Shown here: piece after piece, positions 9,348 to 41,120 of the stretch
Numbering within the stretch: the first letter of the stretch is position 1
Layout of the letters: each line of letters starts with the position of its first letter
Notes under the pieces: generated by a model
Database searches by the model: none
The model's input: the letters and a program-made list of their open reading frames with translations, nothing else
Told to the model about the DNA's origin: nothing
Position numbers and translations under genes: made by a program
IMG/VR virus record: IMGVR_UViG_3300035502_000498
Reading direction: 5' to 3' (one strand)
Source of the DNA: an uncultured virus (IMG/VR IMGVR_UViG_3300035502_000498)
Taxonomy: Duplodnaviria; Heunggongvirae; Uroviricota; Caudoviricetes
Length of the DNA: 64,000 bases

Positions 9348-9350
9348 TTT

Positions 9351-21797: not shown

Positions 21798-22026
21798 TCT
21801 CATTAATAGAATTTCAGAAATTAAAGCTGCGGATGTGCGTATTGCTTTTTCATCAAATCCCTACTTAGATAACTTATTACACGCATCCACTTCTTCCCCT
21901 TATGCATCTTTCATTCGATACACTCTTCAGAAGAAGCATTTGAATCAGGTTCAATCCGAACTTGAACAAACTCTCATTCAAGTTCATGAAAATCTTAAGA
22001 CCAAACCTTCCCATTCTTTGCTATAA
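21790..22026 (+). CDS. Hypothetical protein
   Basis: Overlapping start, 78 aa. Confidence 0.45.
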   Translation: MNNLINRISEIKAADVRIAFSSNPYLDNLLHASTSSPYASFIRYTLQKKHLNQVQSELEQTLIQVHENLKTKPSHSLL

Positions 22027-22115
22027 TCTCCAAATTCTCGTCTCAGTCTCTTGTGTTTTCAACATCGGAATTCACACTAAATTTTGGTGTGTAGTTAAAG
22101 AAATGGAGATAGAAT

Positions 22116-23984
22116 ATGCACATTACAAATGTTAAAGTCCCAAGAGAGTGGACAAAACTTTCAGCTCTTATCCATTCAGGAAGAACCAAGTTCGAGTTTG
22201 AATTGGATAAAAACTATTATATCCACAATATATCAGAATATGTTCTTTGTCTTGCGCAATCAGATGAATTTCCAACAGATTCAACAGAAGTTTCAAAATT
22301 ATATAGCGGAAAATCTGCTGGTTATGTCAAGTCTGAAGGCAAAGACCTATATGTAAGAAATAATCTTCCAGATATTTATTCATTCCCTAAGACAATTGCT
22401 ATTGTTCTTTCAGATGATGTAACTGCTGATACAGCACTTCCTGTTGGAGATTATAAAGAAGCACCAAGTCTAAGAGGTGCTTATGTATTCAAAGCTTCAG
22501 TAGAATCAGAAGCAGATCTTCCTGAAACTGCAGAAGTTGGTGATGTCTATGATATTAAAGCAACTGGTATGAACGTTGCATGGACAGGTTCAGAATGGGA
22601 TGACTTGGGTCAAAAAGTTGTTGAAGTTGATTTGACTCCATACGCATTAAAAGACGATGTCAATTCAGAAGTAACTTCTTTAAAAGAAGCAGATGCTCAA
22701 CTTGAAATAAAAATCCAAGACAAAGCAGATACCGTTGAAGTTTATTCTGCATTGGATACAAAACTTAATAAGTCTGATCTTCCAGAAAATGTGTCTGCAT
22801 TTAATAATGATGCTGGATACTTATCTGAACACCAAGATATTTCAGGTTTGGCAACCAAAGAAGAATTAAAAGACTATGCAAAATCTGAAGCTCTTGATGC
22901 TTATGCAACAAAAGAATCATTATCAGATTATGCAAAATCTGAAGCATTGGATGCATATGCAACTACCGAAGCATTGGATGCTTCATTATTGCTTAAAGCA
23001 AATGCATCAGACTTAACTAAACTATCAGATGCATTGGATGATAAAGCAGAAACATCAGATTTGGTTACAGTTAAATCAATTGCAGATGCTTCAGATGCAG
23101 CAGTAACTTCTGCTCTATCTAGACTTGGTTTGGTAGAAGACAGACTTTCTGCTTTATCCAAAACAAACACAGAACCAGTTGCTGCAGAATCAGGAACAGC
23201 TCTTGCACTTTCAGATACCACAAAAGATTATATCGTAAGTGGGGAAATTGATCAGACTGCAACTATTACTGGTAAATCTGTAACTTTGAAATCTGCAACT
23301 CTTTCTAATAATGCTAGATTGAAAGTTTCTGCAACAGATGGAGATGTTGATGTTAAAGACTTAACTGTTTCTGGATCTTTCCCAAAAGCTTCTGGAAATT
23401 CAGTAGTTCAAATCAGCGATGCAGAGTATGTAACTATTAAAGATGCAACTATTGATGCAACTGCATATAACTTGGCAGAGATTGGTCTTAAAGCAGACAC
23501 TCTTCCTAAAGGTGTTTTGATCGATAATTGCAGATTTGAAGGAACATTATCAAATAATGCAATATTGATATTTGGTACTCAAGATGATGCAGTTATCAAT
23601 ATTAATAATTGCTATTTCCAAGATGTATCAAATGCAATACGTTTGTCGAATAGAACCAATGCTAAGAACGTAACTATCAATATCACAAATTGTACTTGTG
23701 ATAAATGGGATGCAACTCCTGCTTATGCTGGCTTGCTACTTTGCCAAGATTATACTTCAAAATCTGCAACTGAAGTAGAAGAAAACAATCTATTTGGTCC
23801 AGATAAGATTACAATCAATATTAGCAACTTCACTGGTCCGGATGGAAAGAAACTTGTTGCTCCTGAAGACCTTGCTTCTATTTGTGGAACTGCTACAGAA
23901 GATCAAGTTATTTACTTGTGGACCGATGTTGCAGGAGCAGTTGCTTATGATTCTGCTAAATATCCAAGAATCAATATTATGTAA
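22116..23984 (+). CDS. Virion fibre/adhesin-like protein with C-terminal beta-helix-like domain
   Basis: FKASVESEADLP..GDVY..WTGSEWDDLG module, VSAFNNDAGYL, YAK/YAT repeats, INI.NC.F beta-helix pattern. Confidence 0.6.
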   Translation: MHITNVKVPREWTKLSALIHSGRTKFEFELDKNYYIHNISEYVLCLAQSDEFPTDSTEVSKLYSGKSAGYVKSEGKDLYVRNNLPDIYSFPKTIAIVLSDDVTADTALPVGDYKEAPSLRGAYVFKASVESEADLPETAEVGDVYDIKATGMNVAWTGSEWDDLGQKVVEVDLTPYALKDDVNSEVTSLKEADAQLEIKIQDKADTVEVYSALDTKLNKSDLPENVSAFNNDAGYLSEHQDISGLATKEELKDYAKSEALDAYATKESLSDYAKSEALDAYATTEALDASLLLKANASDLTKLSDALDDKAETSDLVTVKSIADASDAAVTSALSRLGLVEDRLSALSKTNTEPVAAESGTALALSDTTKDYIVSGEIDQTATITGKSVTLKSATLSNNARLKVSATDGDVDVKDLTVSGSFPKASGNSVVQISDAEYVTIKDATIDATAYNLAEIGLKADTLPKGVLIDNCRFEGTLSNNAILIFGTQDDAVININNCYFQDVSNAIRLSNRTNAKNVTINITNCTCDKWDATPAYAGLLLCQDYTSKSATEVEENNLFGPDKITINISNFTGPDGKKLVAPEDLASICGTATEDQVIYLWTDVAGAVAYDSAKYPRINIM

Positions 23985-24162
23985 ATGTTTACAATTCCTT
24001 ACTTATCTATATGATAACATTCTATCTACTCCAAAAGGACTCTATACTAGAGTCCTTTTCTCTTGAAAATTAATAGTATTATGGATATTACTGCACTAAA
24101 ATACTTTCTTTTCTGTTTAATCCTATTTGAAGCATATCTGATATTCTTGATAGGATAAGATT

Positions 24163-24282
24163 TCAAGAATTATTAAGTTTTTATAAGTTCTGAAAGGATA
24201 GGATTTATACTATCTTTAAGGAAATTCTATTTTATTCTAGAACAGGGTATTTACTTTTATTTCGTTTTGTTAAATAATTAGA
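24163..24282 (+). promoter_or_regulatory. Repeated early-promoter-like element, copy 3
   Basis: TCAAGAATTATTAAGTTTTTATAAGTTCTGAAA...AGGGTATTTACTTTTATTTCGTTTTGTTAAATAATTAG. Confidence 0.7.
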
Positions 24283-24310
24283 ATGCTAAGAATAAACGAA
24301 AGGAATTCAG

Positions 24311-24679
24311 ATGACAATAGAAAAGAATACGTGTGTGAAAACAATAACAGCGAAAGAATATTGGAATGAATATTTAGCAACAGCTTTATTAAGAACTGGC
24401 TATTTGCCAGAAGATCTGTATTATATGATTACGACAAGTGAAGATCTGCAAAAATACATTACCAATACAGTAGTACGAAATTGGTACATGCAAAATGATA
24501 ATCTTCAAGATGTTGTGCAAGAAATAATCTGTACTCGTAATATAGATGATAAACATTTTTCTCAATCAAATGACACAGAAGATTTAACGGATTGTATTAA
24601 TACTGTTTTTGGTATTGAATTTTTGATTGAAGTCTTAGATGATGAAACAGCAATTATAGAACAAGAAAGGAACAAATAA
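24311..24679 (+). CDS. Hypothetical protein
   Basis: AAGGA RBS, first gene after the promoter-like element. Confidence 0.6.
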   Translation: MTIEKNTCVKTITAKEYWNEYLATALLRTGYLPEDLYYMITTSEDLQKYITNTVVRNWYMQNDNLQDVVQEIICTRNIDDKHFSQSNDTEDLTDCINTVFGIEFLIEVLDDETAIIEQERNK

Positions 24680-24838
24680 TGAGTGAACTAAATCTAAACA
24701 AGACTACCATTGATTGGAATAGCTACGAAAAGCTCCAAGAGAAATTGGCAAGAAAAGAGAAATTTACAAAATCAGAACATGATTACTATACGTATATGTA
24801 TCATGTAGAGGAATTCGAAGCATATGGAGAATTATAAG

Positions 24839-25414
24839 ATGAACGAAAAACAAATAACCACAGGATTATATGGATGGAAACATACAGACAATCTTGGAAT
24901 GTCACAAGATATGTGTGATGCAATGGTGAAATTGGTCAAGGAAGTTTCTGCAGAAAATAAGCAGTTAAGAGAAGAACTTGAAAAGCAACAATCAAAGCAA
25001 GAAAACAAAAAGTGGAAACCAAAGAGTGGAGAAACTTATTTCTATATAGATTGCATGGGAGAGGTTTCAAAACGTGAAAGTCAGGAGTCTTATTATGATA
25101 AGTGGAGAGTATCGCAAGGTAATTATTTCAAGACAAAAGAACAAGCAAAACAGCACTTGGAAAATCTCAAAACCAAAGCTGAACTCAAAGAACTTATGGA
25201 AGAATTGAATGGTGACAAGATAATTGATTGGGAAAATCCAGATCAGAAGAAATATTATATCTACTATAGCTATCCAGGAGAAATGTTGCAAACCATGTGC
25301 TTAAATGATATGAAATCAATGGATATTTATTGCCTAGATAAAGATTTCTTAAACAAAGCAATCAAGAAAATTGGTGAAAAACGTTTGATAAATATGATAA
25401 AAAGTGAGGTATAA
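24839..25414 (+). CDS. Phage hypothetical family W paralog 1
   Basis: WKPK.GE.YFY...GNYFKTKEQA...ELNGD..IDWE..YCLD..IGEKRL. Confidence 0.7.
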   Translation: MNEKQITTGLYGWKHTDNLGMSQDMCDAMVKLVKEVSAENKQLREELEKQQSKQENKKWKPKSGETYFYIDCMGEVSKRESQESYYDKWRVSQGNYFKTKEQAKQHLENLKTKAELKELMEELNGDKIIDWENPDQKKYYIYYSYPGEMLQTMCLNDMKSMDIYCLDKDFLNKAIKKIGEKRLINMIKSEV

Positions 25415-25417
25415 GCT

Positions 25418-25924
25418 ATGACTACATTAGAAGAATTAGAACAAAAACAACAAGAGCTAATAAAGCAACAAAATGAAATTGCTAAACAAATAGAAGAATT
25501 AAAAGAAAACGAAAAGAAAAAGTGGCAACCTCTACTCGGAGAATATTATTCCTACATAGATAGTAAAGGGAAAGCTCTTATTGCTATGCGTCAGAATAAT
25601 GGTGTTACCGAGTGGAGAATATGTCAAGGTAATTGTTTTGAAAGCCTAGAACAAGCAGAACAATATCGAGAAAACTTAAACACAAAATCCTTGCTCCGAG
25701 CCTTAGCAGATGAGTTGAATGGGGATGAAGTGATTGATTGGAAAGAAAATTTACCTAAATATTGTTTATACTATAATCAAGAGCTCGGTGAAGTATATAC
25801 TACACGCAATTCGGCAAACCGCACTCAAGGGGTTATTTATTGCCTAGACAGAAACTTTGGAGAAAAAGCCATTCAACGCATAGGCGAACAACGTTTAATT
25901 GACCTGATAAAAAGTGGAGTGTAA
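25418..25924 (+). CDS. Phage hypothetical family W paralog 2
   Basis: Same motif set with N-terminal coiled coil. Confidence 0.7.
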   Translation: MTTLEELEQKQQELIKQQNEIAKQIEELKENEKKKWQPLLGEYYSYIDSKGKALIAMRQNNGVTEWRICQGNCFESLEQAEQYRENLNTKSLLRALADELNGDEVIDWKENLPKYCLYYNQELGEVYTTRNSANRTQGVIYCLDRNFGEKAIQRIGEQRLIDLIKSGV

Positions 25925-25925
25925 G

Positions 25926-26312
25926 ATGAAATTTTATTGTTGTCAATGTAGCAAAGAGGTACAAGCACAACTCGTGAGTGGAGATGTAATCTATCCACAT
26001 AGACCAGATTTGTATAATCAAAAATTTTATATATGTCCAAAGTGTGGTAAATACGTAGGCACTCACAAAGGCACAATAAGACCACTTGGCTGTATTCCAA
26101 CAAATGAATTAAAAGTAGAAAGACAAAAGATACATACCAAGATGGATATTTTATGGAAAACTAAACAAATATCGAGAAATAAATTGTATAAGCTAATTTC
26201 TCAAAAACTGGGCTATAACTATCATACTGGAGAAACAAGAACTGTTCAAGAATGTTTAAAAGTATTGGATATAATAGATGAAATAAGAAAAGAAATAAAG
26301 GCAGGTGTGTAA
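25926..26312 (+). CDS. DUF3268-like zinc-finger protein
   Basis: CCQC...IYPHRPDL..FYICPKCGKYVGTH..PLG...R..IH..D.LWK. Confidence 0.75.
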   Translation: MKFYCCQCSKEVQAQLVSGDVIYPHRPDLYNQKFYICPKCGKYVGTHKGTIRPLGCIPTNELKVERQKIHTKMDILWKTKQISRNKLYKLISQKLGYNYHTGETRTVQECLKVLDIIDEIRKEIKAGV

Positions 26313-26512
26313 TGATAGGATGTCAACAGAAATATTGTAAATATTGTGTAAAACCAGTATTTTATAAAAGAACTGGAAAATTCTTTTATGGACATTGTAA
26401 AATATCCAATCAACTAATTTTTGAGTGCAATCCAGAAGAAGGTAAAAACTATGATTATTTACCTTTGTATTGCGACTCTTACACACCTAGAAAAAGAAAG
26501 ATAAACTATTAG
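26312..26512 (+). CDS. Small Cys-rich protein
   Basis: CKYC..GHC..C pattern. Confidence 0.5.
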   Translation: MIGCQQKYCKYCVKPVFYKRTGKFFYGHCKISNQLIFECNPEEGKNYDYLPLYCDSYTPRKRKINY

Positions 26513-26526
26513 AAAGGCACAAGAAA

Positions 26527-27015
26527 ATGAATATACAAGAAATAGAGGAACAGATTAAAGCACTTCAAGCAGAACTTGAAAAATTAAAAGGTAAACAAGA
26601 AAACAAAAAGTGGAAACTTGAAAGAGGTATAAAATATTATTTCGCAACTCATTTTGGAGTTGTTGGCACTGCTATCTATGAAGATTCATCAGGAGATAAA
26701 TGGTGTATTCAGCAAGGAAATTGTTTTCAAACAGAAGAACAGGCTGAACAATATCTTGAAAACTTAAAAACCAAAGCTGAATTAAGAGCTTTGGCAGATG
26801 AGTTGAATGGTGACAGGATAATTGATTGGGAACATTACAACCCAACCAAATATTCTATTATGTATGATTATGGACTAAAAACTATATCTCTAGGTACTAC
26901 TGCCACCTCTCAAGACGCTGATGTTATCTATTGCTTAGATGAAAACTTTGCTGATATAGCAAGCGAACGCATTGGTGAGAAACGGATTATAAACATGATA
27001 AAGGCAGGTGTTTAA
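26527..27015 (+). CDS. Phage hypothetical family W paralog 3
   Basis: Same motif set as 24839 and 25418. Confidence 0.7.
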   Translation: MNIQEIEEQIKALQAELEKLKGKQENKKWKLERGIKYYFATHFGVVGTAIYEDSSGDKWCIQQGNCFQTEEQAEQYLENLKTKAELRALADELNGDRIIDWEHYNPTKYSIMYDYGLKTISLGTTATSQDADVIYCLDENFADIASERIGEKRIINMIKAGV

Positions 27016-27017
27016 TA

Positions 27018-27218
27018 ATGAAGCATAGAAAGATGAGAAAAATAAAGCCTTTTCTAAGACTTAAAGCATCTGTGGAAAGAGAATTACAGCAAGCTCAAGA
27101 GAACGGAATCTCTAGATTTTCACCAGAAGCCTTTGCTTTGTTGAACCTATTTGATTTTCTTGTTGCCACCCATGCTAAGAAACTGCAGAAAGGAAGGATA
27201 CAATCATGGATACATTAG
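27018..27218 (+). CDS. Hypothetical protein
   Basis: Tightly packed small ORF. Confidence 0.45.
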   Translation: MKHRKMRKIKPFLRLKASVERELQQAQENGISRFSPEAFALLNLFDFLVATHAKKLQKGRIQSWIH

Positions 27219-27976
27219 AAGAATTAGAACAAAAGCAACAAGAATTGATAGAACAGCAAAAAGAGGTCTCCAGATTAATAAAAGAGCTCAAAGAAAAACA
27301 ACAAGAGTCATGGAAACCAAAATATGGAGAAAAATACTATTACATCACGGATAAAGGTTCTATATCTTGGACTGACTGGGAAAGCTATGCTCTAGATGAA
27401 TATAGACACAGTATTGGAAATTGTTTTAAATGCTATGACCAAGCAGGACAGAATCTTGCTTATTATGATACTAAGATTGAGCTAAAGAATCTTGCAAAAG
27501 AATTAAATGCAGATAGAACCTTTGATTGGAGAGAAATCAATCAAGCAAAATATTATATCAACTATGTTCCTATGTATAATGATTTGGTTCTTCAAAGTGT
27601 TTGGAGTGCTATGACTATAGGACAAGTTTATTGCTTGGATAGCAGTTTTCTTGACAGAGCCATTGAACGTATTGGTAAAGAACGTTTGATAGAAATGCTG
27701 AAAGCATCTATTAATGTTCAATACATACAAACAAATACAACCAGAGAAGAATTTTATACTCCAACAGAAGCTGAAGTACCTGTTGAAGAAGATTCAGATA
27801 AAGAGAAACCATATATCATTGTGGATAAAGTTACCAATATGGCAATTCCTACTCTTGAATTTACAAATGCGTTTGCTGCAAGACACTATGTAGAACGACA
27901 CCAATACAATGATGATATAGGTGAAGTATATTGGACTACAAAAGAATTGTATAATAGAAAGAGACAGAAGAAATAG
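27206..27976 (+). CDS. Phage hypothetical family W paralog 4 with C-terminal extension
   Basis: N-terminus nearly identical to 25418 (TLEELEQKQQELI); extra ~90 aa. Confidence 0.7.
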   Translation: MDTLEELEQKQQELIEQQKEVSRLIKELKEKQQESWKPKYGEKYYYITDKGSISWTDWESYALDEYRHSIGNCFKCYDQAGQNLAYYDTKIELKNLAKELNADRTFDWREINQAKYYINYVPMYNDLVLQSVWSAMTIGQVYCLDSSFLDRAIERIGKERLIEMLKASINVQYIQTNTTREEFYTPTEAEVPVEEDSDKEKPYIIVDKVTNMAIPTLEFTNAFAARHYVERHQYNDDIGEVYWTTKELYNRKRQKK

Positions 27977-28058
27977 CTGGTTATACTTGTTCAGATGGTA
28001 CAAAAATAAGACATGCAATATGTGACAAGATTTTGAAAATTATTGAGAAGGGTTTGAA

Positions 28059-28235
28059 ATGAAAACTGAAAAAGAAATAAAAGAAAAAAAAAAATTAAAC
28101 AATGCCGACATCAAATAGTTGACAATCTTTTTTTCTCCAAACAATATAGTACCACTTATATCAGCAATAGAAGCTCTTGAATGGGTATTGGGTGATTATG
28201 ATGAAACGCAGAGAAAAACTAAAAGATGTAATTGA
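28059..28235 (+). pseudogene. Small phage gene interrupted by an in-frame TAG / homopolymer slips
   Basis: MKTEKEIKEK...TAG...ISAIEALEWVLGD; A11 and T7 runs bracket an alternative open frame. Confidence 0.45.
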
Positions 28236-28982
28236 ATTCGTTCAAAGGTATAATGAGATCAGAAAAATAAAAGCATATGGGCAAGACTTAGCAATTCTTC
28301 AACGAGGTCAAGAATTGCTAAAGGAATTAAATGAATGGCTAAATGAGGAAGTGGAAGAATGAACAGAAAGCCTTTTGGGTTTAGAATCAAAGAATTTAGC
28401 GAACTATCTCCTGATGAAAGAGAAAATGAAATGATTCCTTATGAAGTTCTTTTCAGAGATGATGTAGAATGTAAGAAACGCACCGACCAAATACTAAATG
28501 ATGCATTTAGAAAAGGTTGGTTGTATAAGGAGGAACAATGAACAAAACGTACAAAGGTATGATAAACGTAGATAGATATTTTAAAGCCTATTCAGATGGT
28601 GTAGATTATGAATTTCAATCACAATTAACAGACGATTTATTAACGGAAATTCTTAGAGCAAATGAAAGAATTATTGAATTAGATGATACATTAGATGGGA
28701 TTTATAAAAAGTTATTTGAAAAGGACAATGAAAATGAATAATGATATAGACGTAAGCAAATGTGATTATTATGGTTATGAGGGTGAATGTATTATTGAAC
28801 TAAAACATTGTAGCAATTTTCTCAATTGTCTATATAGACAGTTGCAACGAAAAACGCAAGAATATGAAAAATCCAATCAAGTTCTTGAAGATATAAAGAA
28901 TTATTGCAAAGATGTCAAGTTTGATTTTGGCAGTAAACCAGTAGCCATAGATATTTTAAAAATCATTGAGAAAGGACAATAA
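28198..28982 (+). other. Run of four small overlapping hypothetical phage ORFs
   Basis: ORFs ending at 28362, 28541, 28741 and 28982 with overlapping start/stop junctions. Confidence 0.5.
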
Positions 28983-29184
28983 AAATGAATAATGATATAC
29001 CAAAAGGCATGGGAACATGTGGATATTGGGAACAAGTATTTTATCAAGATGATTATGATTCTGAAGAAGAAAAATGTTACCAATGGTGTAATTGCAAGAA
29101 CCAACCTATAGATGAAGAAGATTGCATAGAATGCGATAAATATGAATGTATGTATTAGTTGATAGAAGCAGAAAGGAAATTGAA

Positions 29185-29619
29185 ATGATTGATCTTAGTG
29201 GATTTTATCTTAGTCCCAGATTTAAAATAAGACTCTGGGACAAACCAACATCTCAAATGACAAATAATGTAATAGTAAATCCATGGCTGCCTTTATCCAT
29301 AACTGCATCATTTTATGATTATACTATTGTTTATTCAGGAGGCAGATTAAAAGATGTTGTCTTAATGCAAAATACAGGATTATTTGATAAGAATCATAAA
29401 CCTATTTATGAAGAAGATATTGTTAAAACTCTTGCTGGACCAATATTGATAAAATATTGCGATACGTGCAAACAGTTCGAGCCATTTATTTTATATGATT
29501 ATGCACCTTTCTGTTTGGCTTGTGCAGGAGACATGCAATGGAATGAACTTGTTGAAGATGAGCAAGATCTTGAAGTAATTGGAAACTTTTATGAGAATCC
29601 TGAGTTGCTACGAGAATAA
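29185..29619 (+). CDS. YopX family protein
   Basis: FKIRLWDK...LMQNTGLFDKNHKPIYEEDIV...EVIGNFYENPELL. Confidence 0.9.
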   Translation: MIDLSGFYLSPRFKIRLWDKPTSQMTNNVIVNPWLPLSITASFYDYTIVYSGGRLKDVVLMQNTGLFDKNHKPIYEEDIVKTLAGPILIKYCDTCKQFEPFILYDYAPFCLACAGDMQWNELVEDEQDLEVIGNFYENPELLRE

Positions 29620-29649
29620 TTTGTTGGAATTCATATTCAATAAAGCTAT

Positions 29650-29764
29650 TCAAGAATTATTAAGTTTCTTTAAGTTCCGAAATCATATTATATTTATTAT
29701 CTTCTGTTTTATTCTAAAACAGGGTATTTACTTTTGTTTCGTTTAGGTAAATAATTAAGTCATG
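29650..29764 (+). promoter_or_regulatory. Repeated early-promoter-like element, copy 4
   Basis: TCAAGAATTATTAAGTTTCTTTAAGTTCC...AGGGTATTTACTTTTGTTTCGTTTAGGTAAATAATTAAGTCAT. Confidence 0.7.
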
Positions 29765-29802
29765 ACAAGTATTTAGATTTTCAACTGAAAGGAGAAATCA
29801 TA

Positions 29803-29973
29803 ATGTCTATAGAAAGAGAATACAACAAACAGATAGATGAAGCACTTCAACTTGAAGCAGCTGGATTTACGAAAGCCGATATTGAAGAAATGGATAGAAG
29901 GTATACAAGAAGAAATGAAGAACCATCTATTCCACTAGAAGATTTTCTAAAGGAGATTGGCTATGAAGGTTAA
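29803..29973 (+). CDS. Antitoxin-like acidic peptide A (56 aa, not in ORF track)
   Basis: MSIEREYNKQIDEALQLEAAGFTKADIEEMDRRYTRRNEEPSIPLEDFLKEIGYEG; overlaps start of the ParE-like gene. Confidence 0.75.
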   Translation: MSIEREYNKQIDEALQLEAAGFTKADIEEMDRRYTRRNEEPSIPLEDFLKEIGYEG

Positions 29974-30238
29974 TTTAGATCCAAGTGCAAAAGAAGATTG
30001 GCTCAGTTCAATAGAACACAAGGAAGCTAGCCCAAGAACAGATGCGAATAAGTTCATTTCTTGTTTGGCTGAAACCATGCGGTCTCTAGCCTTTATGCCT
30101 TTACGACATCCAAAAGTTCCAACAAGGGATTATCACTATATAATAGATAAGACTTATGAATATAAGATATGCTACTATGTTGAAGATGAATATGTTCGCA
30201 TACTTTATGTGATTCATCCAAAAGAAAACAGATACTAA
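29963..30238 (+). CDS. RelE/ParE-family toxin-like protein
   Basis: MKVNLDPSAKEDW...LAFMPLRHP...YKICYYVEDEYVRILYVIHPK, typical ParE size and pattern. Confidence 0.75.
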   Translation: MKVNLDPSAKEDWLSSIEHKEASPRTDANKFISCLAETMRSLAFMPLRHPKVPTRDYHYIIDKTYEYKICYYVEDEYVRILYVIHPKENRY

Positions 30239-30250
30239 GGAGAACATCTT

Positions 30251-30409
30251 ATGTCAGAAGAATCTAATCAATTAGTTCAACTTGAATCAGCTGGATTTTC
30301 TCTAGCTGATATTGAGGAGCTAGATAGAAGACATTCTAGAATAGGAATTGATCGTTCTTATTCCATGGAAGAAATGTGGAAGGAGCTCACAGATGAAATC
30401 AGAAATTGA
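30251..30409 (+). CDS. Antitoxin-like acidic peptide B (52 aa, not in ORF track)
   Basis: MSEESNQLVQLESAGFSLADIEELDRRHSRIGIDRSYSMEEMWKELTDEIRN; AAGGAG RBS. Confidence 0.7.
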   Translation: MSEESNQLVQLESAGFSLADIEELDRRHSRIGIDRSYSMEEMWKELTDEIRN

Positions 30410-30557
30410 ACAGAATAAACAATTAGAAGAAGATCTTCAACTTGAAGCCGCAGGATTCACCAGAGCAGATATTGAAGAAATGGATAGAAGATCAAATGAA
30501 CCTTCTACTTCGTGGGAAGATTTTCTAAAGGAGATTGGCTATGATTTCAGAGATTAA
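30393..30557 (+). CDS. Antitoxin-like acidic peptide C
   Basis: MKSEIEQNKQLEEDLQLEAAGFTRADIEEMDRRSNEPSTSWEDFLKEIGYDFRD. Confidence 0.7.
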   Translation: MKSEIEQNKQLEEDLQLEAAGFTRADIEEMDRRSNEPSTSWEDFLKEIGYDFRD

Positions 30558-30702
30558 GAAATTAGATTCACTTGAAGTAGCTGGATTCACCCAAGAAGAA
30601 CTGGAAGAAATGGATAGACGCTATGCAAATGCACTTGCAGGAAATGAATCTTCATGGGATGAATTTATGAAGGAGATTGGCTATGAAAGCTCTAATTCAT
30701 AA
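30541..30702 (+). CDS. Antitoxin-like acidic peptide D (53 aa, not in ORF track)
   Basis: MISEIKKLDSLEVAGFTQEELEEMDRRYANALAGNESSWDEFMKEIGYESSNS. Confidence 0.7.
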   Translation: MISEIKKLDSLEVAGFTQEELEEMDRRYANALAGNESSWDEFMKEIGYESSNS

Positions 30703-31183
30703 ACTGCTAATGATTAAAGATAATGTTGAATATGGATATGAACAACTTCATGAATGGGCAAGTCCACTTAAAAGGAGGCAATCTCAGATAGAAGCATCTT
30801 CGGATACTTATGTAGAACATCTTGTGAAAATAATTATCTATGGAGAAAGTTATCCAGAAACTATAAATCATTGGACTGCAGAATTCATGGCACCATTAAA
30901 AGATTCAGTTCGTGTGAGTCTTAAGTCAACAGGAAAACCACCTGAACCATATCAACTCAATAAATGGCTACTGAAATCTGTGGAAACAAAAGAAGATCTA
31001 ACTGGTATGATCAATTATGTAATCAATCCTTGGAAATATTCAAGAACTCCTCGAGAAATAGACTCAGAAGACGTTCTTCTTAAGATTAAACAGTTTACAA
31101 GTTATGTCACAGAATTGGCTTATGAAGGAAAAATTTCTAAAGATCTAGTAGACAACTATGTTCAAGACATATTGCTAAGATAA
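30683..31183 (+). CDS. DUF29-like helical protein, paralog 1
   Basis: SQIEASSDTYVEHLVKIIIY...NHWTAEF resembles the DUF29 S..L..HLLK..Y....W..EI pattern. Confidence 0.55.
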   Translation: MKALIHKLLMIKDNVEYGYEQLHEWASPLKRRQSQIEASSDTYVEHLVKIIIYGESYPETINHWTAEFMAPLKDSVRVSLKSTGKPPEPYQLNKWLLKSVETKEDLTGMINYVINPWKYSRTPREIDSEDVLLKIKQFTSYVTELAYEGKISKDLVDNYVQDILLR

Positions 31184-31207
31184 TTCTTTATTAAAGAAAG
31201 GACTAAT

Positions 31208-31714
31208 ATGAAAGATCTAGTTCATAAAATAATGGAACAAGTTTATAATGCTCAATACCAATGTGGCAAACTATATGAATTTGCCACACCAATTGGAAAG
31301 ATTCATGCAAAAGTGAAATCTTTAGCAGAACCGATTATCATGCACATATTGAAAGTATTGTACTACGGAGAATCAAACTCAGAACTTAAAGAACATTGGA
31401 CTATAGAAATAGAAACTTTTCTGCAACAGACAATTAGTAGTACCATTAAAGGAACGAATAAGCATCCAAGTGCAGAACAACTTTATTCTTGGCTTACAGA
31501 TGAACCAATGGAAACAATAAAAGATTTTGAAGGCTTATTAAGAGTTGTTTTGGCTAAAGGAAGATCTTATCAAGGACAAGAAAAAGCTCTTTCTTCTGAA
31601 GATGCATACGAACGCACTCAGGAATTTTTGCATAAAGTCACTAAAGATTTGGCAGATTTAAATCTAACTCATTCAAGACTGGAAGAATATGTTCAGAACA
31701 TATTGCTAAGATAG
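31208..31714 (+). CDS. DUF29-like helical protein, paralog 2
   Basis: VKSLAEPIIMHILKVLYY...EHWTIEI. Confidence 0.55.
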   Translation: MKDLVHKIMEQVYNAQYQCGKLYEFATPIGKIHAKVKSLAEPIIMHILKVLYYGESNSELKEHWTIEIETFLQQTISSTIKGTNKHPSAEQLYSWLTDEPMETIKDFEGLLRVVLAKGRSYQGQEKALSSEDAYERTQEFLHKVTKDLADLNLTHSRLEEYVQNILLR

Positions 31715-31739
31715 CTCTCTATTAAAAGAAAGGCTCAAC

Positions 31740-32207
31740 ATGGAACTTAAAAGAATCATACATACACTTATGGAATTTTCTTCAGAAACAGATCAATTAA
31801 AATCCAAGATCTATTCAATGTCAGATATATTCTCAGAACATGTTTGCAAGATTGTATTCTATACCTCTGTTGATACAAGTTGGTACATATCTGTGTATAA
31901 AAGTTTGGTTCCAACTATGAAGAAAATCAAAAGTAAATCCAAGAGATTAAGTGCAGAAACAATAACTTCTTTATTGTATGATCCAAATTTCGAAGATATG
32001 GAAGATTTTGAAAGTTATTTGAATACAGAATTTGAAGCAATTACATATAACGAGGGGTTTAAGTATCTAAATCGAAGAGATATTTCTAGCGAAGAAGCCT
32101 TTTCCAGGATTAAGACTTTTTGGTCTCATGTTCTGCCATTATGTAAAGCAGGAAAACTCACTAGAGAACAATGCACACATTTCTGTCAAGAAGATCTGGA
32201 GAGGTAA
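31740..32207 (+). CDS. DUF29-like helical protein, paralog 3
   Basis: KIYSMSDIFSEHVCKIVFY...SWYISV. Confidence 0.5.
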   Translation: MELKRIIHTLMEFSSETDQLKSKIYSMSDIFSEHVCKIVFYTSVDTSWYISVYKSLVPTMKKIKSKSKRLSAETITSLLYDPNFEDMEDFESYLNTEFEAITYNEGFKYLNRRDISSEEAFSRIKTFWSHVLPLCKAGKLTREQCTHFCQEDLER

Positions 32208-32212
32208 ATAAA

Positions 32213-32689
32213 ATGGAACTTAAAAGAATCATACATACACTTATGGAAAATGTTGAATATGGATGTGATTGTCTATATGAATTTGTTACGCCAATTGGAA
32301 AAGTTCGTACAAGAGTTAAATCCTTGGCAGAACCAATTATAGATCATTTAGCAAAAGCAATTTTGTATAAAGACATTTATCCTCAGTATCTAGATCATTG
32401 GTGCAAAGAATTGTATGCATTCTTTGTTTCTTGTATGAAAGTCAAAATTCAAAGCACAAATAGATACCCAGATTCAAAACAATTAAAGTCTTGGATTTTG
32501 GAATATTATTCCGATTCAAGCGATATGGAAGGAATTAAGGCATATCTGGCAGTTAAATATGGAGATAATGCTTTTATGTCAGATGAAGAATTGTATTCCA
32601 AGTTGGTTCAAGCATTGGATCAGATTTTGCCTTCAGTTGCAGAAAGAAATATAGATTGGATTAAGATTAAGCAGATTATTTGTGATTAA
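32213..32689 (+). CDS. DUF29-like helical protein, paralog 4
   Basis: VKSLAEPIIDHLAKAILY...DHWCKEL; start refined after GAGG. Confidence 0.55.
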   Translation: MELKRIIHTLMENVEYGCDCLYEFVTPIGKVRTRVKSLAEPIIDHLAKAILYKDIYPQYLDHWCKELYAFFVSCMKVKIQSTNRYPDSKQLKSWILEYYSDSSDMEGIKAYLAVKYGDNAFMSDEELYSKLVQALDQILPSVAERNIDWIKIKQIICD

Positions 32690-32786
32690 TGTCGTATTCA
32701 ATTCTCAGAACTGTTCTATAATTATAATTCAGAATTTCTAATTATAAAGTTGAAACACACGTACATAATCAAGAAAGGAAAGAATT

Positions 32787-33302
32787 ATGGTAGAAATTAA
32801 AACAGTTCAAGCAAAGTACAACATTAGAATAGCTGCTCTGGATGGGGTTATTATTCCAGAAGATACTAAATCAGTTAACAAGTGGACTCCAATCCGACAT
32901 GGAGTTCTTCTTAATGAATATATGAAATGGTGCAAAAATCATAATGGTACAAAACAGCAATTTGCTCATTCAATCATTACAGGAATCAATGCAGGATTTT
33001 ACCCTATTCTGGAACCAAATGTATGCGATACCGATGCATACACTGCACCAACAGTTATTTCAATTATGTCTCAGATAGATTGGTGGGGTCAATCAGAGAA
33101 CAAAGTTTGGGTCACAGAAAAAGACAGCACAGAAAAGTCCTTCTATCCAAACAATCTCATGATTCTCACATCGGAGCAAAAAGCATCCGAAGCAAGACGT
33201 TCAATTGAAAAAGAAGCACAAGTTGCTCAAATGAAAACTTTCTTAAGTACTCTTCCACCAGAGTCTGTGGAAGCACTTAAGACTGCTCTTGAAACTAAAT
33301 AA
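32787..33302 (+). CDS. Hypothetical protein
   Basis: AAGGA RBS, 171 aa. Confidence 0.6.
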   Translation: MVEIKTVQAKYNIRIAALDGVIIPEDTKSVNKWTPIRHGVLLNEYMKWCKNHNGTKQQFAHSIITGINAGFYPILEPNVCDTDAYTAPTVISIMSQIDWWGQSENKVWVTEKDSTEKSFYPNNLMILTSEQKASEARRSIEKEAQVAQMKTFLSTLPPESVEALKTALETK

Positions 33303-33329
33303 AAAAAAAAACAAGAAAGGAACTATACT

Positions 33330-33833
33330 ATGAAGAAAATAATTAATAGACTAAAAACATTATGGACTCTAAGCTCATTGGATCCAAAAGAAATAGATAA
33401 TCTTATGGATATAGCTGCAAAATATTTCACTTATGAAGAGATACTTCAAGACTATTTAAAGAGAATTTATCCTTCTCTAGATAGTTTTCTTGAAGATTAT
33501 AAAGGAACTTATTTGGCATATTTGGAGCCTGCTTATTTAGATCACTTGGTTTATCTTGCTTCAGAAGAACTTGATGCAGTTGATTTTATTAAAGGCTCAG
33601 GAAAATTTCTTGCAGGTTCTTTCTTAATGCCTTCTTATAAAACTGTATTCCAATATGTTGAAGAAGTCAGAAACATGTGCAAAGAAAATCCAGAAAAAGA
33701 ATCTGTATCAACTATTTCTTTATCCGCAGATGACATGGACAGAATATCTTCAGTGATTCATCAATTAGAAGAAAGTTCAAATAAAACTGCTCAATCTTCT
33801 GCAATATTCTTTTCATCAATATTTAAGTTATAG
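33330..33833 (+). CDS. Hypothetical protein
   Basis: AAGGA RBS, 167 aa; hairpin at 33869-33902 follows. Confidence 0.6.
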   Translation: MKKIINRLKTLWTLSSLDPKEIDNLMDIAAKYFTYEEILQDYLKRIYPSLDSFLEDYKGTYLAYLEPAYLDHLVYLASEELDAVDFIKGSGKFLAGSFLMPSYKTVFQYVEEVRNMCKENPEKESVSTISLSADDMDRISSVIHQLEESSNKTAQSSAIFFSSIFKL

Positions 33834-33941
33834 AAAATATACTCCAAATCATAGCTATTATTGGTCTTAAATTAGGATGGAGCTAGTTCTTCATCCTAAT
33901 TTCTTGCTCCAGAATTAATCTTTTCATAAGGAGAATACTTC

Positions 33942-34166
33942 ATGGAAGATATGTCTATATCAGATAAACAAACCATAATGAGAACTATACAGGTTCTTAA
34001 TAGTTTTATTCAGAAAAGGAAGTATTCAAATCTTGCCAATGATATTAAACTTGTTATCACAACTCCAATAGGAGAAGAATTCGAAATCTTAACTGCTGCA
34101 GATGCTGAAGCATGTAAACTTCGAATGGAACGAATTCTAGATATGGAAAAGATGCTCTCTCGCTAG
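33942..34166 (+). CDS. Hypothetical protein
   Basis: AAGGAG RBS. Confidence 0.55.
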   Translation: MEDMSISDKQTIMRTIQVLNSFIQKRKYSNLANDIKLVITTPIGEEFEILTAADAEACKLRMERILDMEKMLSR

Positions 34167-34208
34167 CTTTAGATTAGAGTGTATTTCATACAGGAGAAGA
34201 ATTACATC

Positions 34209-35537
34209 ATGCTTTTAACAACAGACTATGCAAGCAGGAATATAGGAGATGTGTTTTTCACACTTCGTAATGATGCTACATTAAATGGAGCAGTTCCTTG
34301 TGATGGTTCAGAATATAGCGCTTCAGATTTTAGCACTATAAGCGAAGATGTCAATCCATATTCATTATGCGTTGCAGGTAGACTTCCAAATGTAGATTAT
34401 GCAACTTATAATCTTCAAGTTAAGAATAATGGATCTTGTGCATCTTTTGGCATAGATACTATAAATGGAAAATTCAAAGTTCCAACAATTAAGAACGTAT
34501 TCATAGAAGCAGGTGATACTTCTACTCTAGCTAAATACATGGCTCCAGGATTACCAAATATTACTGGTTCTGTTAAATTCACAGCTACAAATTCTACGTT
34601 GAGTACCGTGATATCTTCGAGTGGTTCCTTATCACATACGAAAGAATATGCATATGATGGAGCAATTGGTCAGATAGCTAATGCATCAGTAGGACCTTAT
34701 GCATCAGATTTAAATCTAGACGCTTCAAAATCTAGCTCAATCTATGGTGCTTCCAGCACAGTTCAACCAAAATCCCTTTTATTAAGACCAATGGTTCAAT
34801 TGGTAACTGTTTCTGGAAATACAGTTGTTGAAGGTTCTGATGGCAGTGATTCAGATACTGTAATCCCAACTTATACAATTCCTTATGTATTCGTTCCTGG
34901 AACGGAAGCAAAAGCAACCGAAGTGAATGCAAATTTCGATTATGTACTATCTATCCTTCGTGGATTTTCAATAGATGCAGCATCTGCAAAAGTAGTTCAT
35001 TTGGATGGAGATGAAATCATTACAGGACAAAAGACTTTTGTTACAAATCCAATTATATCTTCAATTGAAATCAAACCAGAATCTGGTTCACCTTATATAG
35101 ATTTCCACTATAATGGGGAAAGCTCAGATTATTCTGCAAGAATTATAGAAGGAACAAGAGGATACTTGCAATTGAATCAGAATCCACCAACAGATGATAG
35201 TTCAACGAAGATTGCAACTACGAATTGGGTAGCTGCGAAAGTCAGTGCATCATCCACATCAAAAACAACTATTCTTGCAACTCTTGCACCAAATCGCTCT
35301 GGTGCATATAGTATTAGCAGTGGTTGGACTGCACCAAAATATGGATGGGTCAGTTGGTATTCTGGCGCAAATGACAGATCAACTCGATACTTGTACATAA
35401 ATGGAGTTGAAGTTGGTTATCACAGTTCATATAAATACACAGACCCTCATAGAGTCGAATATATGGTAAGTCCTAACGATAAAGTAACATTTACAGCTGG
35501 AACAACTGCTAAGTTCTTCCCATGTAAAGGAGCATAA
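34209..35537 (+). CDS. Tail fibre protein with collar-like domain
   Basis: GAVPCDG, GLPNITGS...DASKSSSIYG.S.TVQP, VHLDGDEIITGQKTF, DDSSTKIATT.WV; start refined after AGGAG. Confidence 0.8.
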   Translation: MLLTTDYASRNIGDVFFTLRNDATLNGAVPCDGSEYSASDFSTISEDVNPYSLCVAGRLPNVDYATYNLQVKNNGSCASFGIDTINGKFKVPTIKNVFIEAGDTSTLAKYMAPGLPNITGSVKFTATNSTLSTVISSSGSLSHTKEYAYDGAIGQIANASVGPYASDLNLDASKSSSIYGASSTVQPKSLLLRPMVQLVTVSGNTVVEGSDGSDSDTVIPTYTIPYVFVPGTEAKATEVNANFDYVLSILRGFSIDAASAKVVHLDGDEIITGQKTFVTNPIISSIEIKPESGSPYIDFHYNGESSDYSARIIEGTRGYLQLNQNPPTDDSSTKIATTNWVAAKVSASSTSKTTILATLAPNRSGAYSISSGWTAPKYGWVSWYSGANDRSTRYLYINGVEVGYHSSYKYTDPHRVEYMVSPNDKVTFTAGTTAKFFPCKGA

Positions 35538-35550
35538 GGAGAGATAAGAT

Positions 35551-36159
35551 ATGTTTTATAGAGTAAGAAATAATAAAGTTTATGACTGGGGTGATTATAA
35601 GTATGAATCTGATTGCTCGGAGCTTAAAGACTATACTTCTTCTCAATATGAAGAATTGTCTTCATATTTCACAATATCCAAAGGAGTTTTAGTTCCACCT
35701 TCAAATGAAGATGAAATTTTATTGGCTCAAGCCAAGACTTCCAAATACACAGAGATCACAGATGCTTATGATTATGCAAATCAATATTATGTAATCAACT
35801 TATATGATAATATCTATGGAAATGTTTCTTGGTTGAATACATGGACAAAGGTTATCAATCTTTGCGAAAGCAATAATAAATCTGTAATCCCAAGTGCAGT
35901 TCGATATTATAAGAAAGCAGTTGGTCAATCCAAGTTTACAAATGTAAGCATTCAAGATGTTTCTCTTGATACTCTTAAGAAACAAAAACAATTATTGGAA
36001 AATGTTCAGTTCAGTATTCTTCAACCAAAAAGAAATGAATACTATGCACAACTCGAATCTGCAACTACAATAGAAGATGTAAATCTTATAGAAGTCAATT
36101 TTGGTCTAACAATTAATGAACAAGATCAATCAGATGTTGCAGAGAAAGTAGATCTCTAA
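35551..36159 (+). CDS. Tail fibre assembly/DUF4376-like protein
   Basis: LAQAKTSKYTEI...LESATTIEDVNLI pattern; follows fibre gene. Confidence 0.55.
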   Translation: MFYRVRNNKVYDWGDYKYESDCSELKDYTSSQYEELSSYFTISKGVLVPPSNEDEILLAQAKTSKYTEITDAYDYANQYYVINLYDNIYGNVSWLNTWTKVINLCESNNKSVIPSAVRYYKKAVGQSKFTNVSIQDVSLDTLKKQKQLLENVQFSILQPKRNEYYAQLESATTIEDVNLIEVNFGLTINEQDQSDVAEKVDL

Positions 36160-36212
36160 TTCTTCTATAAATTGAAGTATAGAAAACAGTTGTTCAGGAG
36201 ATCAATTAGCAT

Positions 36213-36509
36213 ATGTCTATTATCATAAATGGAAAGAAGATTGCTGGAACTTATAAAGTTCAAGATATAGGAGTTGCCACTACATCCAGTGCAGGTTTGG
36301 TCAAGCCCGATGGAGATACTATAACAATAGATTCAGATGGGACCATCCACGGATCCAAAGCAACATCTTTGGAATGGGGAAATATAACTGGCGACATTTC
36401 AAACCAAACGGACTTGCAAGATTTTATAAGTTCTGCAGGATTAAGTGCTGAATACAACGAAGATTCTGGAGAATTGGTGTTTACATCAAGTCAAGAGGGA
36501 ACTAAATAA
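36213..36509 (+). CDS. Short tail-fibre repeat protein
   Basis: ATTSSAGLVKPDGDTITIDSDGTI and WGNITGDISNQTDLQ motifs. Confidence 0.65.
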   Translation: MSIIINGKKIAGTYKVQDIGVATTSSAGLVKPDGDTITIDSDGTIHGSKATSLEWGNITGDISNQTDLQDFISSAGLSAEYNEDSGELVFTSSQEGTK

Positions 36510-36775
36510 TGTTACTAACCACAGATTATTCTATTTTAGACCAATATAGAGATGGAAAAACTTATGCAGTATTTGAATATATCATAGCAGAATATACTTT
36601 TGCTTATGATATTAATAATGAATTATGGTCAGTTTCAGATTTAATGGAATTGAATTCAGATAGTTCAGAACAAATTACTTATTATACAGATGCAGAATTT
36701 CTATCAATATATCAAGGTTGGATGAATGATGGATACAGCATAGGAATTGAAGAAGTTAAAGAGGAGGGTGTATAA
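36509..36775 (+). CDS. Hypothetical acidic protein
   Basis: Starts MLLTTDY like 34209. Confidence 0.55.
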   Translation: MLLTTDYSILDQYRDGKTYAVFEYIIAEYTFAYDINNELWSVSDLMELNSDSSEQITYYTDAEFLSIYQGWMNDGYSIGIEEVKEEGV

Positions 36776-37485
36776 TGGCAACAGCTACAATATATTATTT
36801 TACCATAAATGGAGTTGTGTCAGGGTTTACTTCAAGCAAATGGTATTGGAACTACTTTTACTGCAGTATAGCATATACAAATTTTAAAACCGATACCGAC
36901 AGTAAAACTATGACATATTATAGAGATGCTGCAGCGTCACCTGATAAATATGGTAACACCTATATTAGCATAACTTTAACCAACGGTGATACTCTTACTA
37001 TTCCAAGTAGTTATATGGAAGTAACAACTTCAGGTACGACAACTTATGTAACTTTCGACGCCATCTCTTATATAGATGATAATCCAAATTGTGGTTTAAC
37101 ATACGAGGGTCAAACTACTGATAACACTACAGAACCTTCAACTGGGGGGGTGCTACAATGGGGTTTAAAAATACAAGGTCCAGTAAAGTTTATTACTTTA
37201 ACTATAGACAGTGCAGAATTTCCTTACGAAGAGTTTACCAATGAAAATGATATTTTAACCTACAGTGGTACCACCGCTATAACAAGTTATAATGATATAA
37301 CTGTAACTACTACCAATGGGGTATATACTGTTGATGATAAGTATATTTCGGGGGGAAACACAAATGGTGAACCAAGTACAGATGATACAAGTGTAAGTGT
37401 TGACGACTTAAGTGGTGTAGAAGCTCCAGACTTAGGAGATATAAGTATAGAAGACGCAGCTAGTATGACCATAACAACACCTTAA
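36775..37485 (+). CDS. Thr-rich putative virion protein
   Basis: GAGGAGG RBS; beta-rich T/Y composition. Confidence 0.55.
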   Translation: MATATIYYFTINGVVSGFTSSKWYWNYFYCSIAYTNFKTDTDSKTMTYYRDAAASPDKYGNTYISITLTNGDTLTIPSSYMEVTTSGTTTYVTFDAISYIDDNPNCGLTYEGQTTDNTTEPSTGGVLQWGLKIQGPVKFITLTIDSAEFPYEEFTNENDILTYSGTTAITSYNDITVTTTNGVYTVDDKYISGGNTNGEPSTDDTSVSVDDLSGVEAPDLGDISIEDAASMTITTP

Positions 37486-37520
37486 CCAAACCAACATAAA
37501 CAAATAAAAAGGAAAACAAA

Positions 37521-39440: not shown

Positions 39441-39477
39441 TACTATATAACCCATAGCATAGAGAAAAAGGAGAAAG

Positions 39478-40338
39478 ATGTACGTATATAAAGATGATGA
39501 AGGATATAAGTTGCCTGCAGAGGTAGTAACCAAGCATTACAAAGAACCGAATGCCAACATTTGTGGCACACTCACTTTTAAAGATGATGTAATAAGTGGT
39601 TTTGGTTCAACTAACTATTTGAAAACTGCAGAAGCTATAAACTTCAACTCTGCTAGTACTTGGGAAATAGTTGTTAAAGCAAAATGTACAGCAGAAAGTG
39701 CAAACAGAGGTTTTATATCTACAGTAGTGAGATATAGTGGTATAAATGGTTATTATACATCTTCTAACACTTTAGCATTAGAACTTTCGTCAAGTGGTAC
39801 AAGCTTTGATATTGCACAACTTATAGGTAAAAGCACAATAACTACAGACACTTGGTTTTGGGCAAAATATGAATTTACTGGAAGTGCTTACAATTTCTAT
39901 TATTCATCTAATGGTATTAATTGGAATTTGGAAAATAGTGTATCGAGCACCACAAAAGTTAAAGCTAATACAAACTTTATCCTAGGTAATGACGACCAAT
40001 TAGGAACACCAGTATCAGGTTTGTATTTTGACCTTTCTGAGTGCTATATTAAACTAAATGATGATACTGTTTGGCGAGGTATAAATGAATATGATAAAGA
40101 AAGAAATAACTACTTCGCCCTCGACTACACAAACTTGAGTGTAAACAATTTGGTGTTAAGGACTATTAAGGATAACACTGAGAGTGGTGAAACTCCAAAT
40201 GAAACTCCAAATGAAACAGAGGGTGAAGGAACTGACCTTGGTAATAGTGGTACTGATAGCAGTGGTGGTCCTAGTACCAGTGACCCAAGTACAACAGTAA
40301 CATCGCCAGTAACACCTGCCGATAAAACACTAAAGTAA
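39478..40338 (+). CDS. LamG/concanavalin-like putative virion protein
   Basis: WEIVVK...TWFWAKYEFTG...FILGN...DLSECYIK beta-sandwich pattern. Confidence 0.55.
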   Translation: MYVYKDDEGYKLPAEVVTKHYKEPNANICGTLTFKDDVISGFGSTNYLKTAEAINFNSASTWEIVVKAKCTAESANRGFISTVVRYSGINGYYTSSNTLALELSSSGTSFDIAQLIGKSTITTDTWFWAKYEFTGSAYNFYYSSNGINWNLENSVSSTTKVKANTNFILGNDDQLGTPVSGLYFDLSECYIKLNDDTVWRGINEYDKERNNYFALDYTNLSVNNLVLRTIKDNTESGETPNETPNETEGEGTDLGNSGTDSSGGPSTSDPSTTVTSPVTPADKTLK

Positions 40339-40356
40339 ACCCATAGGAGAAATACA

Positions 40357-40878: not shown

Positions 40879-41120
40879 CTTAACAGTGCAGACCAAGCCT
40901 CTTTATAATGCTTAAATAGGTCTGCCACTTAAAGGAGTAAAGTATGATGTTTAAAATCCTAATAATTTTCAACAGTTGTAATTTTCTTAATTTGGCTTAA
41001 TACTGTGCCCTCAGATTACTAAAATTTCTTTCTTCTCTTAAAAGATTTCTTTCTTTCACAAGAAGAAATTTCATTTTCCAGAAGCAACTTATAAGAAAAT
41101 GAAAGGTAAATCCAAAACCA

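Follow-up and report, generated by a model that had tools for sequence, protein, structure and literature searches.

The locus lies within a window of 64,000 nucleotides, the whole stretch of DNA analysed here, and consists of a repeated upstream element followed by a peptide gene (A), a ParE-type gene, three further peptide genes (B, C, and D), and four DUF29-like genes, in that order. The individual features are the following:

29648..29759, + strand: repeated upstream element, ~110-130 nt, with an AT-rich tract and a sigma-70-like TTTACT-17-AATAAT at 29727-29755; putative early promoter
29803-29973, + strand: peptide A, 56 aa, candidate cognate antitoxin lacking a DNA-binding domain; the ParE gene takes its SD from the KE codons of A
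29963-30238, + strand: ParE-fold toxin candidate, 91 aa, ATG start; overlaps A by 11 nt
30251-30409, + strand: peptide B, 52 aa, putative orphan antitoxin allele with the second tail type and its own SD; its end holds the SD and start of C
30393-30557, + strand: peptide C, 54 aa, putative orphan allele; its tail matches those of two homologs, P0006 (15/17) and P0008 (13/17)
30541-30702, + strand: peptide D, 53 aa, putative orphan allele, coupled to the first DUF29-like gene
30683..31183, + strand: DUF29-like copy 1, 166 aa, helical, coupled to D
31208..31714, + strand: DUF29-like copy 2, 168 aa; Pfam DUF29 at E 0.048, below the cut-off; model pLDDT 86.7
31740..32207, + strand: DUF29-like copy 3, 155 aa
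32213..32689, + strand: DUF29-like copy 4, 158 aa

The window, whose source contig measures 72,741 bp going by the protein records, has a GC content of 33.8% and long ORFs almost all on one strand, and its genes include GroEL, an exonuclease, thymidylate synthase, PcfJ, YopX, tail-tip domains, and two tRNAs; by this content it looks like a portion of a large phage. The host is probably a member of the Gastranaerophilales (Melainabacteria). DNA from window positions 22000-41900 matches 153 of 401 genomes of that order (E <= 0.001), many of them weakly, with the best matches at 65-77% identity across tail-like genes, and 8 genome loci yielded peptide homologs, 4 of them under the title Gastranaerophilales or Melainabacteria. 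No CRISPR spacers were recognised when the same 22000-41900 interval was compared with the 401 genomes (2 candidates per genome being scored), so that the host assignment draws on shared genes only; of three short near-perfect matches from the spacer search, one proved to be a stretch for ribosome binding, one a hairpin-like motif, and one a match by chance.

An earlier note on this DNA had described four acidic paralogs of 52-56 aa, and all four were found where it placed them on the + strand, with net charges of -7 to -9. They are true paralogs: in blastp among the 106 window ORFs, every one of the 6 pairs matches at E 1e-20 to 2e-5. Identity to A is 46% for B, 71% for C, and 46% for D, the copies overall being 37-71% identical with 13 invariant columns. 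B and D deviate from the ADIEEMDRR stretch of the shared motif that had been quoted for the family. AAGGAG lies 9-10 nt 5' of the ATG of each of A-D. B and C as well as C and D overlap by 17 nt each, and the overlap of D with the gene behind it is 20 nt; in every overlap AAGGAG, written by the KE codons, stands 9 nt 5' of the following ATG. The claim that each peptide's coding end doubles as ribosome-binding site and start of the next gene is exact for A, C, and D, which carry AAGGAGattggctATG; B differs at its end but keeps this SD and its spacing. Each duplicated unit was further said to bring its own translational coupling, and an SD is indeed present in the coding ends of A, B, C, and D, with the exception that B itself is uncoupled, starting 12 nt past the ParE stop behind its own SD. 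The gene that follows B, C, or D is a peptide or a DUF29-like gene and no toxin, whereas A is not an orphan.

All four window copies are intact. Their in-frame codon scores (0.12-0.19) compare with 0.16 +/- 0.06 for long window ORFs, with the other five frames all negative, and pairwise dN/dS, calculated from only ~30 synonymous sites each, is 0.26-0.90, below 1 in 6/6 pairs and lower in the core for most of them. Codon score and dN/dS together suggest that B-D are coding, as had been assumed. The same evidence bears on a reading that we consider quite improbable, in which B-D are not working antitoxins and instead are decaying relics, translational couplers, or recombination joints, or in which D partners the DUF29-like protein. 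Such a reading would fit the invariant KE codons doubling as SD in the phage, the coupling of D to a DUF29-like gene exactly like that of A to ParE, and the position of the peptide copies in host genomes (described below), which often lie where island modules meet and include at least two truncated ones (L020 and L009/L018). It is at odds with the constraint on protein sequence, with the integrity of the four copies, and with the KE pair itself, which is kept in 5 of the 9 host copies shown and is written there AAA GAA, which makes no SD; KE therefore appears to be conserved as protein, and the SD coupling to be a phage refinement.

The placement of the array behind a repeated promoter-like element also held up: a pattern derived from the four copies themselves finds 4 of them in the window (at 9437, 13137, 24250, and 29727) against 0/100 shuffles. 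Promoter-like sites in that region are not commoner than chance (19 versus 25.3). Going by its sequence, the repeated element is probably an early promoter. Its other copies lie at 9348-9479, 13107-13169 (partial), and 24161-24292, and each copy precedes a cluster of small genes without an assigned role.

The RelE/ParE-like gene that the first peptide was said to overlap in antitoxin-toxin order is present, with its ATG at 29963 and its SD inside A. Its product passes Pfam PF05016 marginally (26.1 bits against a cut-off of 23), and none of its 4 close homologs P0014-P0017 matches that family at E <= 1. In VIA, its structural model (pLDDT 73.8) is matched best by PrpT (Z 12.6), followed by ParE2 of the PaaA2-ParE2 system (Z 12.0, rmsd 2.2, 87 aligned) and, further down, M. 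tuberculosis ParE1 (11.1); the top 8 rows are ParE-type or similar toxins (Z 9.8-12.6), with YoeB, RelE, and YafQ at 9.5 or below. Foldseek agrees, its best match being ParDE (E 3.6e-4). The model points to a fold of the ParE subfamily, nearer ParE than RelE or YoeB, and the gene is a toxin candidate whose product may poison gyrase/topoisomerase or may be an RNase.

That A-D have no evident DNA-binding domain agrees with the earlier note: there is no RHH/ParD match at E <= 1 and none in NCBIfam at E <= 5, unlike the host ParDs, which do match RHH/ParD families, and inspection of 16 peptide homologs retrieved without length restriction revealed no RHH fusions. With the RHH domain absent from the peptides, no autoregulation is evident. 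We take A-D to resemble the Unstab_antitox / TIGR02574 addiction-module antitoxins, families that are not listed for them in Pfam or NCBIfam. No named family was found for the peptides in Pfam, NCBIfam, PHROG, or PADLOC (in PADLOC, 16 proteins without a match below E 0.01), and the nearest named clusters in the Atlas, DUF6290 (0.78) and RelB3_C (0.77), are leads only. The family is small, with 12 matches in a word-indexed search and 16 in an exhaustive one, two of the latter spurious. Matches set aside were those of the peptide profile to IcmE in the PDB (E 8e-4) and to P0036 and P0040, all short repeat-motif matches, and a weak one in genome G117. The 107-aa record P0027, in which an unrelated N-terminal half is fused to a phage-type peptide, is possibly an assembly chimera.

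The multimer modelling that had been proposed as a check was run for A with the window ParE and gave a score of 0.67, against 0.02 for the best of 3 controls; the score mark is reached by 116/157 solved complexes and 2/215 mismatched pairs, rates that hold roughly here, with our own alignments. Runs share at least 92% of contacts, with partner pLDDT of at least 76. In the model, residues 42-45 of A, which form the variable tail strand, pair with ParE strand 1, and the invariant EMDRR helix lies on ParE residues 70-82 in the conserved C-terminal sheet, a binding mode that is presumably ParD-like. Because solved ParDE complexes exist, this pass may mirror likeness to known structures. Complex model and ParE fold together favour the antitoxin-like identity predicted for the family and the pairing of A with ParE, and going by the model A is most likely an antitoxin cut down to its neutralising part. 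As the tail pairs through a backbone strand, the tails are possibly interchangeable.

In the paaR2-paaA2-parE2 module of prophage CP-933P from E. coli O157:H7, the antitoxin has no DNA-binding domain (PMC8630535; PDB 5CW7/5CZF), so the lack of this domain is not new. PaaA2-ParE2 shares with the window locus a phage-borne ParE-fold toxin (ParE2 being its second-best fold match) and a short upstream antitoxin without a DNA-binding domain. It differs in having one antitoxin where the window locus has four, in showing 21% identity, and in needing the PaaR2 regulator; no such gene, and no significant match to HTH/RHH families, was found among the 13 proteins scanned around the window locus (29146-34166). 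The window peptides gave no sequence match to PaaA2. By its modelled complex, A is probably an antitoxin of the PaaA2 kind that lacks such a domain; B-D are putative orphan alleles. Canonical ParDE systems (PrpAT, Caulobacter and Mesorhizobium ParDE, M. tuberculosis ParDE1/2) resemble the locus in toxin fold (Z 10.6-12.6), in their overlapping antitoxin-toxin order, and, as modelled, in a helix-plus-strand binding mode, and the locus departs from them in having no RHH, three extra antitoxin alleles, and allele mosaics in relatives.

These relatives comprise 5 ParE clusters of 62-100% identity (the alleles in relatives at 62-79%) and ~12 phage-type peptide clusters. The collection viral_contigs held no relative by peptides, ParE, DUF29-like gene, next gene, or promoter motif, and a tblastn search of GenBank phages gave no match to A or the DUF29-like gene and a single weak ParE-like match (E 0.07). 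ParE allele changes concentrate in the antitoxin-facing half: 28/39 positions vary in residues 2-40 against 20/51 in residues 41-91 (Fisher p 0.003), and within this half 16/18 modelled interface positions vary against 12/21 others (p 0.04, post hoc). Over the whole ParE, the interface is no more variable than the rest (22/37 versus 26/53, p 0.39). The allele P0014, for instance, has 19 differences from the window ParE, 16 of them within residues 2-40.

The peptides of these relatives are mosaics of the window copies. P0004 joins the front of D (25/27) to the tail of A (20/21), with a D-like end, and P0006 joins the front of A (33/33) to the tail of C (15/17). P0004, P0014, and P0048, a variant of B at 92% identity, each come from a 1,106-bp contig (JGI proteins); if these are one contig, that relative's spare slot would hold the window's cognate tail. 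Short metagenome contigs can be chimeric, although identity at the D/A crossover extends over only 15 nt. P0006 comes from a 2,737-bp contig, equal in size to that of the ParE allele P0015. The overlap between peptide end and ParE start fits for P0006 with P0013/15/16 and for P0007/8/18 with P0017/28, against a background of 1-2 of the 106 window ORFs, and the tail of P0007 is nearest B (11/21) while those of P0008 and P0018 are nearest C (13/17). B- and C-like tails thus appear to occupy the cognate slot of other ParE alleles, with gene order in the relatives deduced from equal contig sizes and overlap compatibility and not from their DNA; P0018 lies on a 174-kb contig, and none of the ParE matches is on a contig of that size. 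A scheme of one tail per toxin is made less likely by the tail types of P0007 and P0008, which both fit a single ParE allele.

The earlier note had named host RelE/ParE defence toxins as the targets of the array. Spelled out, this would mean that B-D mimic antitoxins and bind host or plasmid RelE/ParE toxins freed by host-expression shut-off, which we regard as doubtful. Targets are present, with PF05016 in 71/201 Gastranaerophilales genomes (up to 7 per genome), the array sits behind a putative early promoter, and the tails of host antitoxins share, by eye, a helix-strand-helix pattern with the peptides. Precedents by analogy are T4 Dmd, which counters RnlA/LsoA (PMC7354431), phage orphan NADAR/DarG-like enzymes, which counter DarTG (PMC11825919), and HigBAC, an anti-phage system with a RelE-family toxin (PMC11980606). 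The host ParEs themselves are merely 24-31% identical to the phage ParE over the full length, and the phage-ParE profile has weak matches in 8/401 genomes of the order (best E 7e-4). Host toxins are accompanied by their own RHH, ParD, or DUF6290 antitoxins, and in hhalign the peptide profile reaches a probability of 0.9% against 25 host RHH antitoxins, with 5/100 column shuffles as good; these 25 were hand-picked from 38 loci with duplicates removed, and the score covers this RHH group, the largest of three antitoxin groups. In the same survey, the ORF chosen at locus L029 is a non-toxin. PF05016 is found in 5/9 peptide-bearing genomes against 71/201 overall, too few for a link. Mimicry would also not require the phage's own ParE, and the closest counterparts of the B and C tails are peptides that are apparently cognate to other phage ParE alleles. 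Host targets are not supported by these comparisons.

A further oddity for an anti-host-defence weapon is that the peptide family is carried, without toxin, on host-integrated elements. Peptide homologs occur in 7/401 genomes of the order, within a cassette of varying content that also has a serine recombinase gene besides WG-repeat and FtsZ-like ones; this cassette adjoins tRNA-Ser in 5/7 loci scanned and, in G125, genes for DUF2924, ParB-methylase, DUF5681, and terminase. At least 3 host-type peptide loci are among the matches listed from a metagenome scan. No ORF in host loci L001-L011 matches the phage-ParE profile, and ParEs 15-23 kb from host copies were rejected as partners, having their own ParD-type antitoxins and lying outside the peptide cassette. 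At L094 (G125:C2:44000-60000), L001, and L003-L006, an element with terminase, DUF5681, ParB-methylase, DUF2924, and recombinase genes is integrated at tRNA-Ser(GCT), with WG-repeat proteins, extra FtsZ/tubulin-like genes, and toxin-less peptide copies as cargo. Often directly 5' of host peptide copies is a protein of 136-162 aa (L004 4576-4989 and homologs) that has no Pfam, PHROG, or PADLOC family and could be an unrecognised peptide partner.

Many host copies are tandem fusions of both tail types in a single ORF. With P0007 and with a host copy the tail of B reaches scores of 46-47, compared with at most 18 for A, C, and D, and the second tail type forms a clade with 92% support in a short alignment. 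From the fusions and the B-tail scores, the array does not look like a plain recent amplification of A and seems to draw on an older allele pool common with host mobile elements. Amplification from one captured toxin-antitoxin pair, as initially suggested, is thus too simple, the B tail being nearer copies in relatives and host elements and the relatives being mosaic.

A plainer alternative, on balance unlikely, is dosage or back-up: A-D would all bind the ParE of this very phage, duplication via the self-coupling end having raised supply, with tail diversity reflecting tolerated drift and gene conversion. Consistent with it are the invariant peptide core that contacts the conserved ParE sheet, the high identity of C to A, tail pairing through backbone contacts, the fit of both tail types to one ParE allele, and the tendency of this phage to four-copy arrays, of which the window has three (peptides A-D, the DUF29-like genes, and a set at 24824-27976). 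Dosage would not account for two tail types being retained side by side in phage and host elements, often tandem-fused, nor for ParE alleles varying mainly on the antitoxin-facing half, and toxin-less host copies would be of no use for it.

We favour, at a probability of roughly 45%, a reading of the locus as an archive of antitoxin alleles against the ParE toxins of sister phages or related elements. In this scheme the repeated promoter would drive the operon early, producing ParE, the cognate A, and three spare alleles, with coupling giving near-equal amounts of all peptides. Recombination via the conserved core would move tails from cognate to spare slots and back. Where sister phages or related elements share a Gastranaerophilales cell with the phage, B-D would neutralise the ParE alleles of these competitors, which would let it enter, or outcompete in, cells guarded by a relative's ParE pair. 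If ParE originates outside the host chromosome, toxin-less homologs on host-integrated elements would be expected. A wider version, which we hold as a tentative possibility, is a three-way race in which sister phages carry divergent ParE alleles and recombining libraries of minimal antitoxins against one another's alleles, while satellite-like integrated host elements with DUF2924-terminase genes use these same antitoxins, often with two types tandem-fused, to disarm the phage toxin. The archive of alleles, action on host toxins, dosage, and relics overlap as explanations and are not fully exclusive.

The ingredients of the locus are known, namely ParE, antitoxins that lack a DNA-binding domain, orphan antitoxins in phages, and gene amplification. 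Their combination, in which a polymorphic phage toxin is followed by type II antitoxins that are diversified, recombine, couple themselves to the next gene, and have counterparts on host elements, did not turn up in the literature searched, whose coverage is incomplete; nor did a phage ParE with several antitoxin paralogs. AdfB-type mimics are reportedly phage orphan antitoxins, and reported cases of expansion are the amplification of tifA in T4 and the pseudo-ToxI repeats that phage phiTE carries. Like B-D, Dmd, NADAR, and AdfB are antitoxins without an adjacent matching toxin; those are single genes with host-toxin targets shown by experiment, whereas the window set consists of paralogous type II binding peptides beside their own toxin, with phage alleles as best-matched targets. 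The array is akin to tifA, phiTE, and the SegB-driven amplification of phage anti-defence genes (PMC13096335) in that a phage has multiplied an antitoxin-like gene in tandem, the difference being that those copies are near-identical and raise dosage, whereas the window copies are 37-71% identical, old, and mosaic.

A review proposes toxin-antitoxin-mediated phage competition, in which propagation in a guarded host is possible only with a compatible antitoxin (PMC12548467). The window locus, on the favoured reading, shares with this model the need for a compatible antitoxin, and with the orphan-immunity arrays of polymorphic toxin systems the placing of orphan immunity alleles behind a cognate pair. 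Those known arrays concern secreted interbacterial toxins; the type II pair of the window locus is carried by a phage and would act inside the cell. If the archive reading is true, the locus would be a natural case of toxin-antitoxin-based phage-phage competition of the kind modelled in PMC12548467, and orphan type II antitoxins would act as anti-addiction modules, a role for which two papers (PMC7354431, PMC11825919) describe the evidence as limited. It would also provide a natural set of 5-6 toxin alleles and ~20 antitoxins of 50 aa, in which natural front/tail mosaics map specificity. If host toxins were the targets after all, the phage would possess a whole library of paralogous peptides that mimic antitoxins, going beyond a single mimic; if dosage were the explanation, the locus would be an unusual toxin-antitoxin layout in an uncultured Melainabacteria phage.

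The DUF29-like genes downstream of D form a second array of paralogs (25-33% identity; phrog_31822), modelled as all-helical. The DUF29 profile (PF01724) reaches 14.3 bits against a cut-off of 22.5 in 1 of the 4 copies, and the top VIA match of the model is 3FCN (Z 7.0, rmsd 3.2, 111 aligned), which we take to be a DUF29 protein, with malate synthase level at 6.7. The proteins resemble uncharacterised phage proteins (BFVD, E 0.001-0.015), with nothing usable in the Atlas and only 2 outside homologs found; a DUF29-like match in G177 was rejected as a relative, since its phage-like contig, of which 60 of 145 kb were compared, does not match window ORFs in tblastn.

The third four-copy set (24824, 25418, 26527, and 27206) has 39-48% identity, a coiled-coil start, and no named family, and sits behind a copy of the repeated upstream element. 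More paralog pairs are found at 2143-3558 / 4183-5574 (43% identity) and 9741-9902 / 9918-10229 (50%), and from these, gene duplication seems frequent in this phage. A 42-nt hairpin-like intergenic motif at 40885-40926 has 88-93% matches in several Gastranaerophilales genomes and is possibly a small regulatory RNA element, and positions 42582-44969 encode a 795-aa surface-protein-like product with ~14 or more tandem repeats of 69 nt (23 aa).
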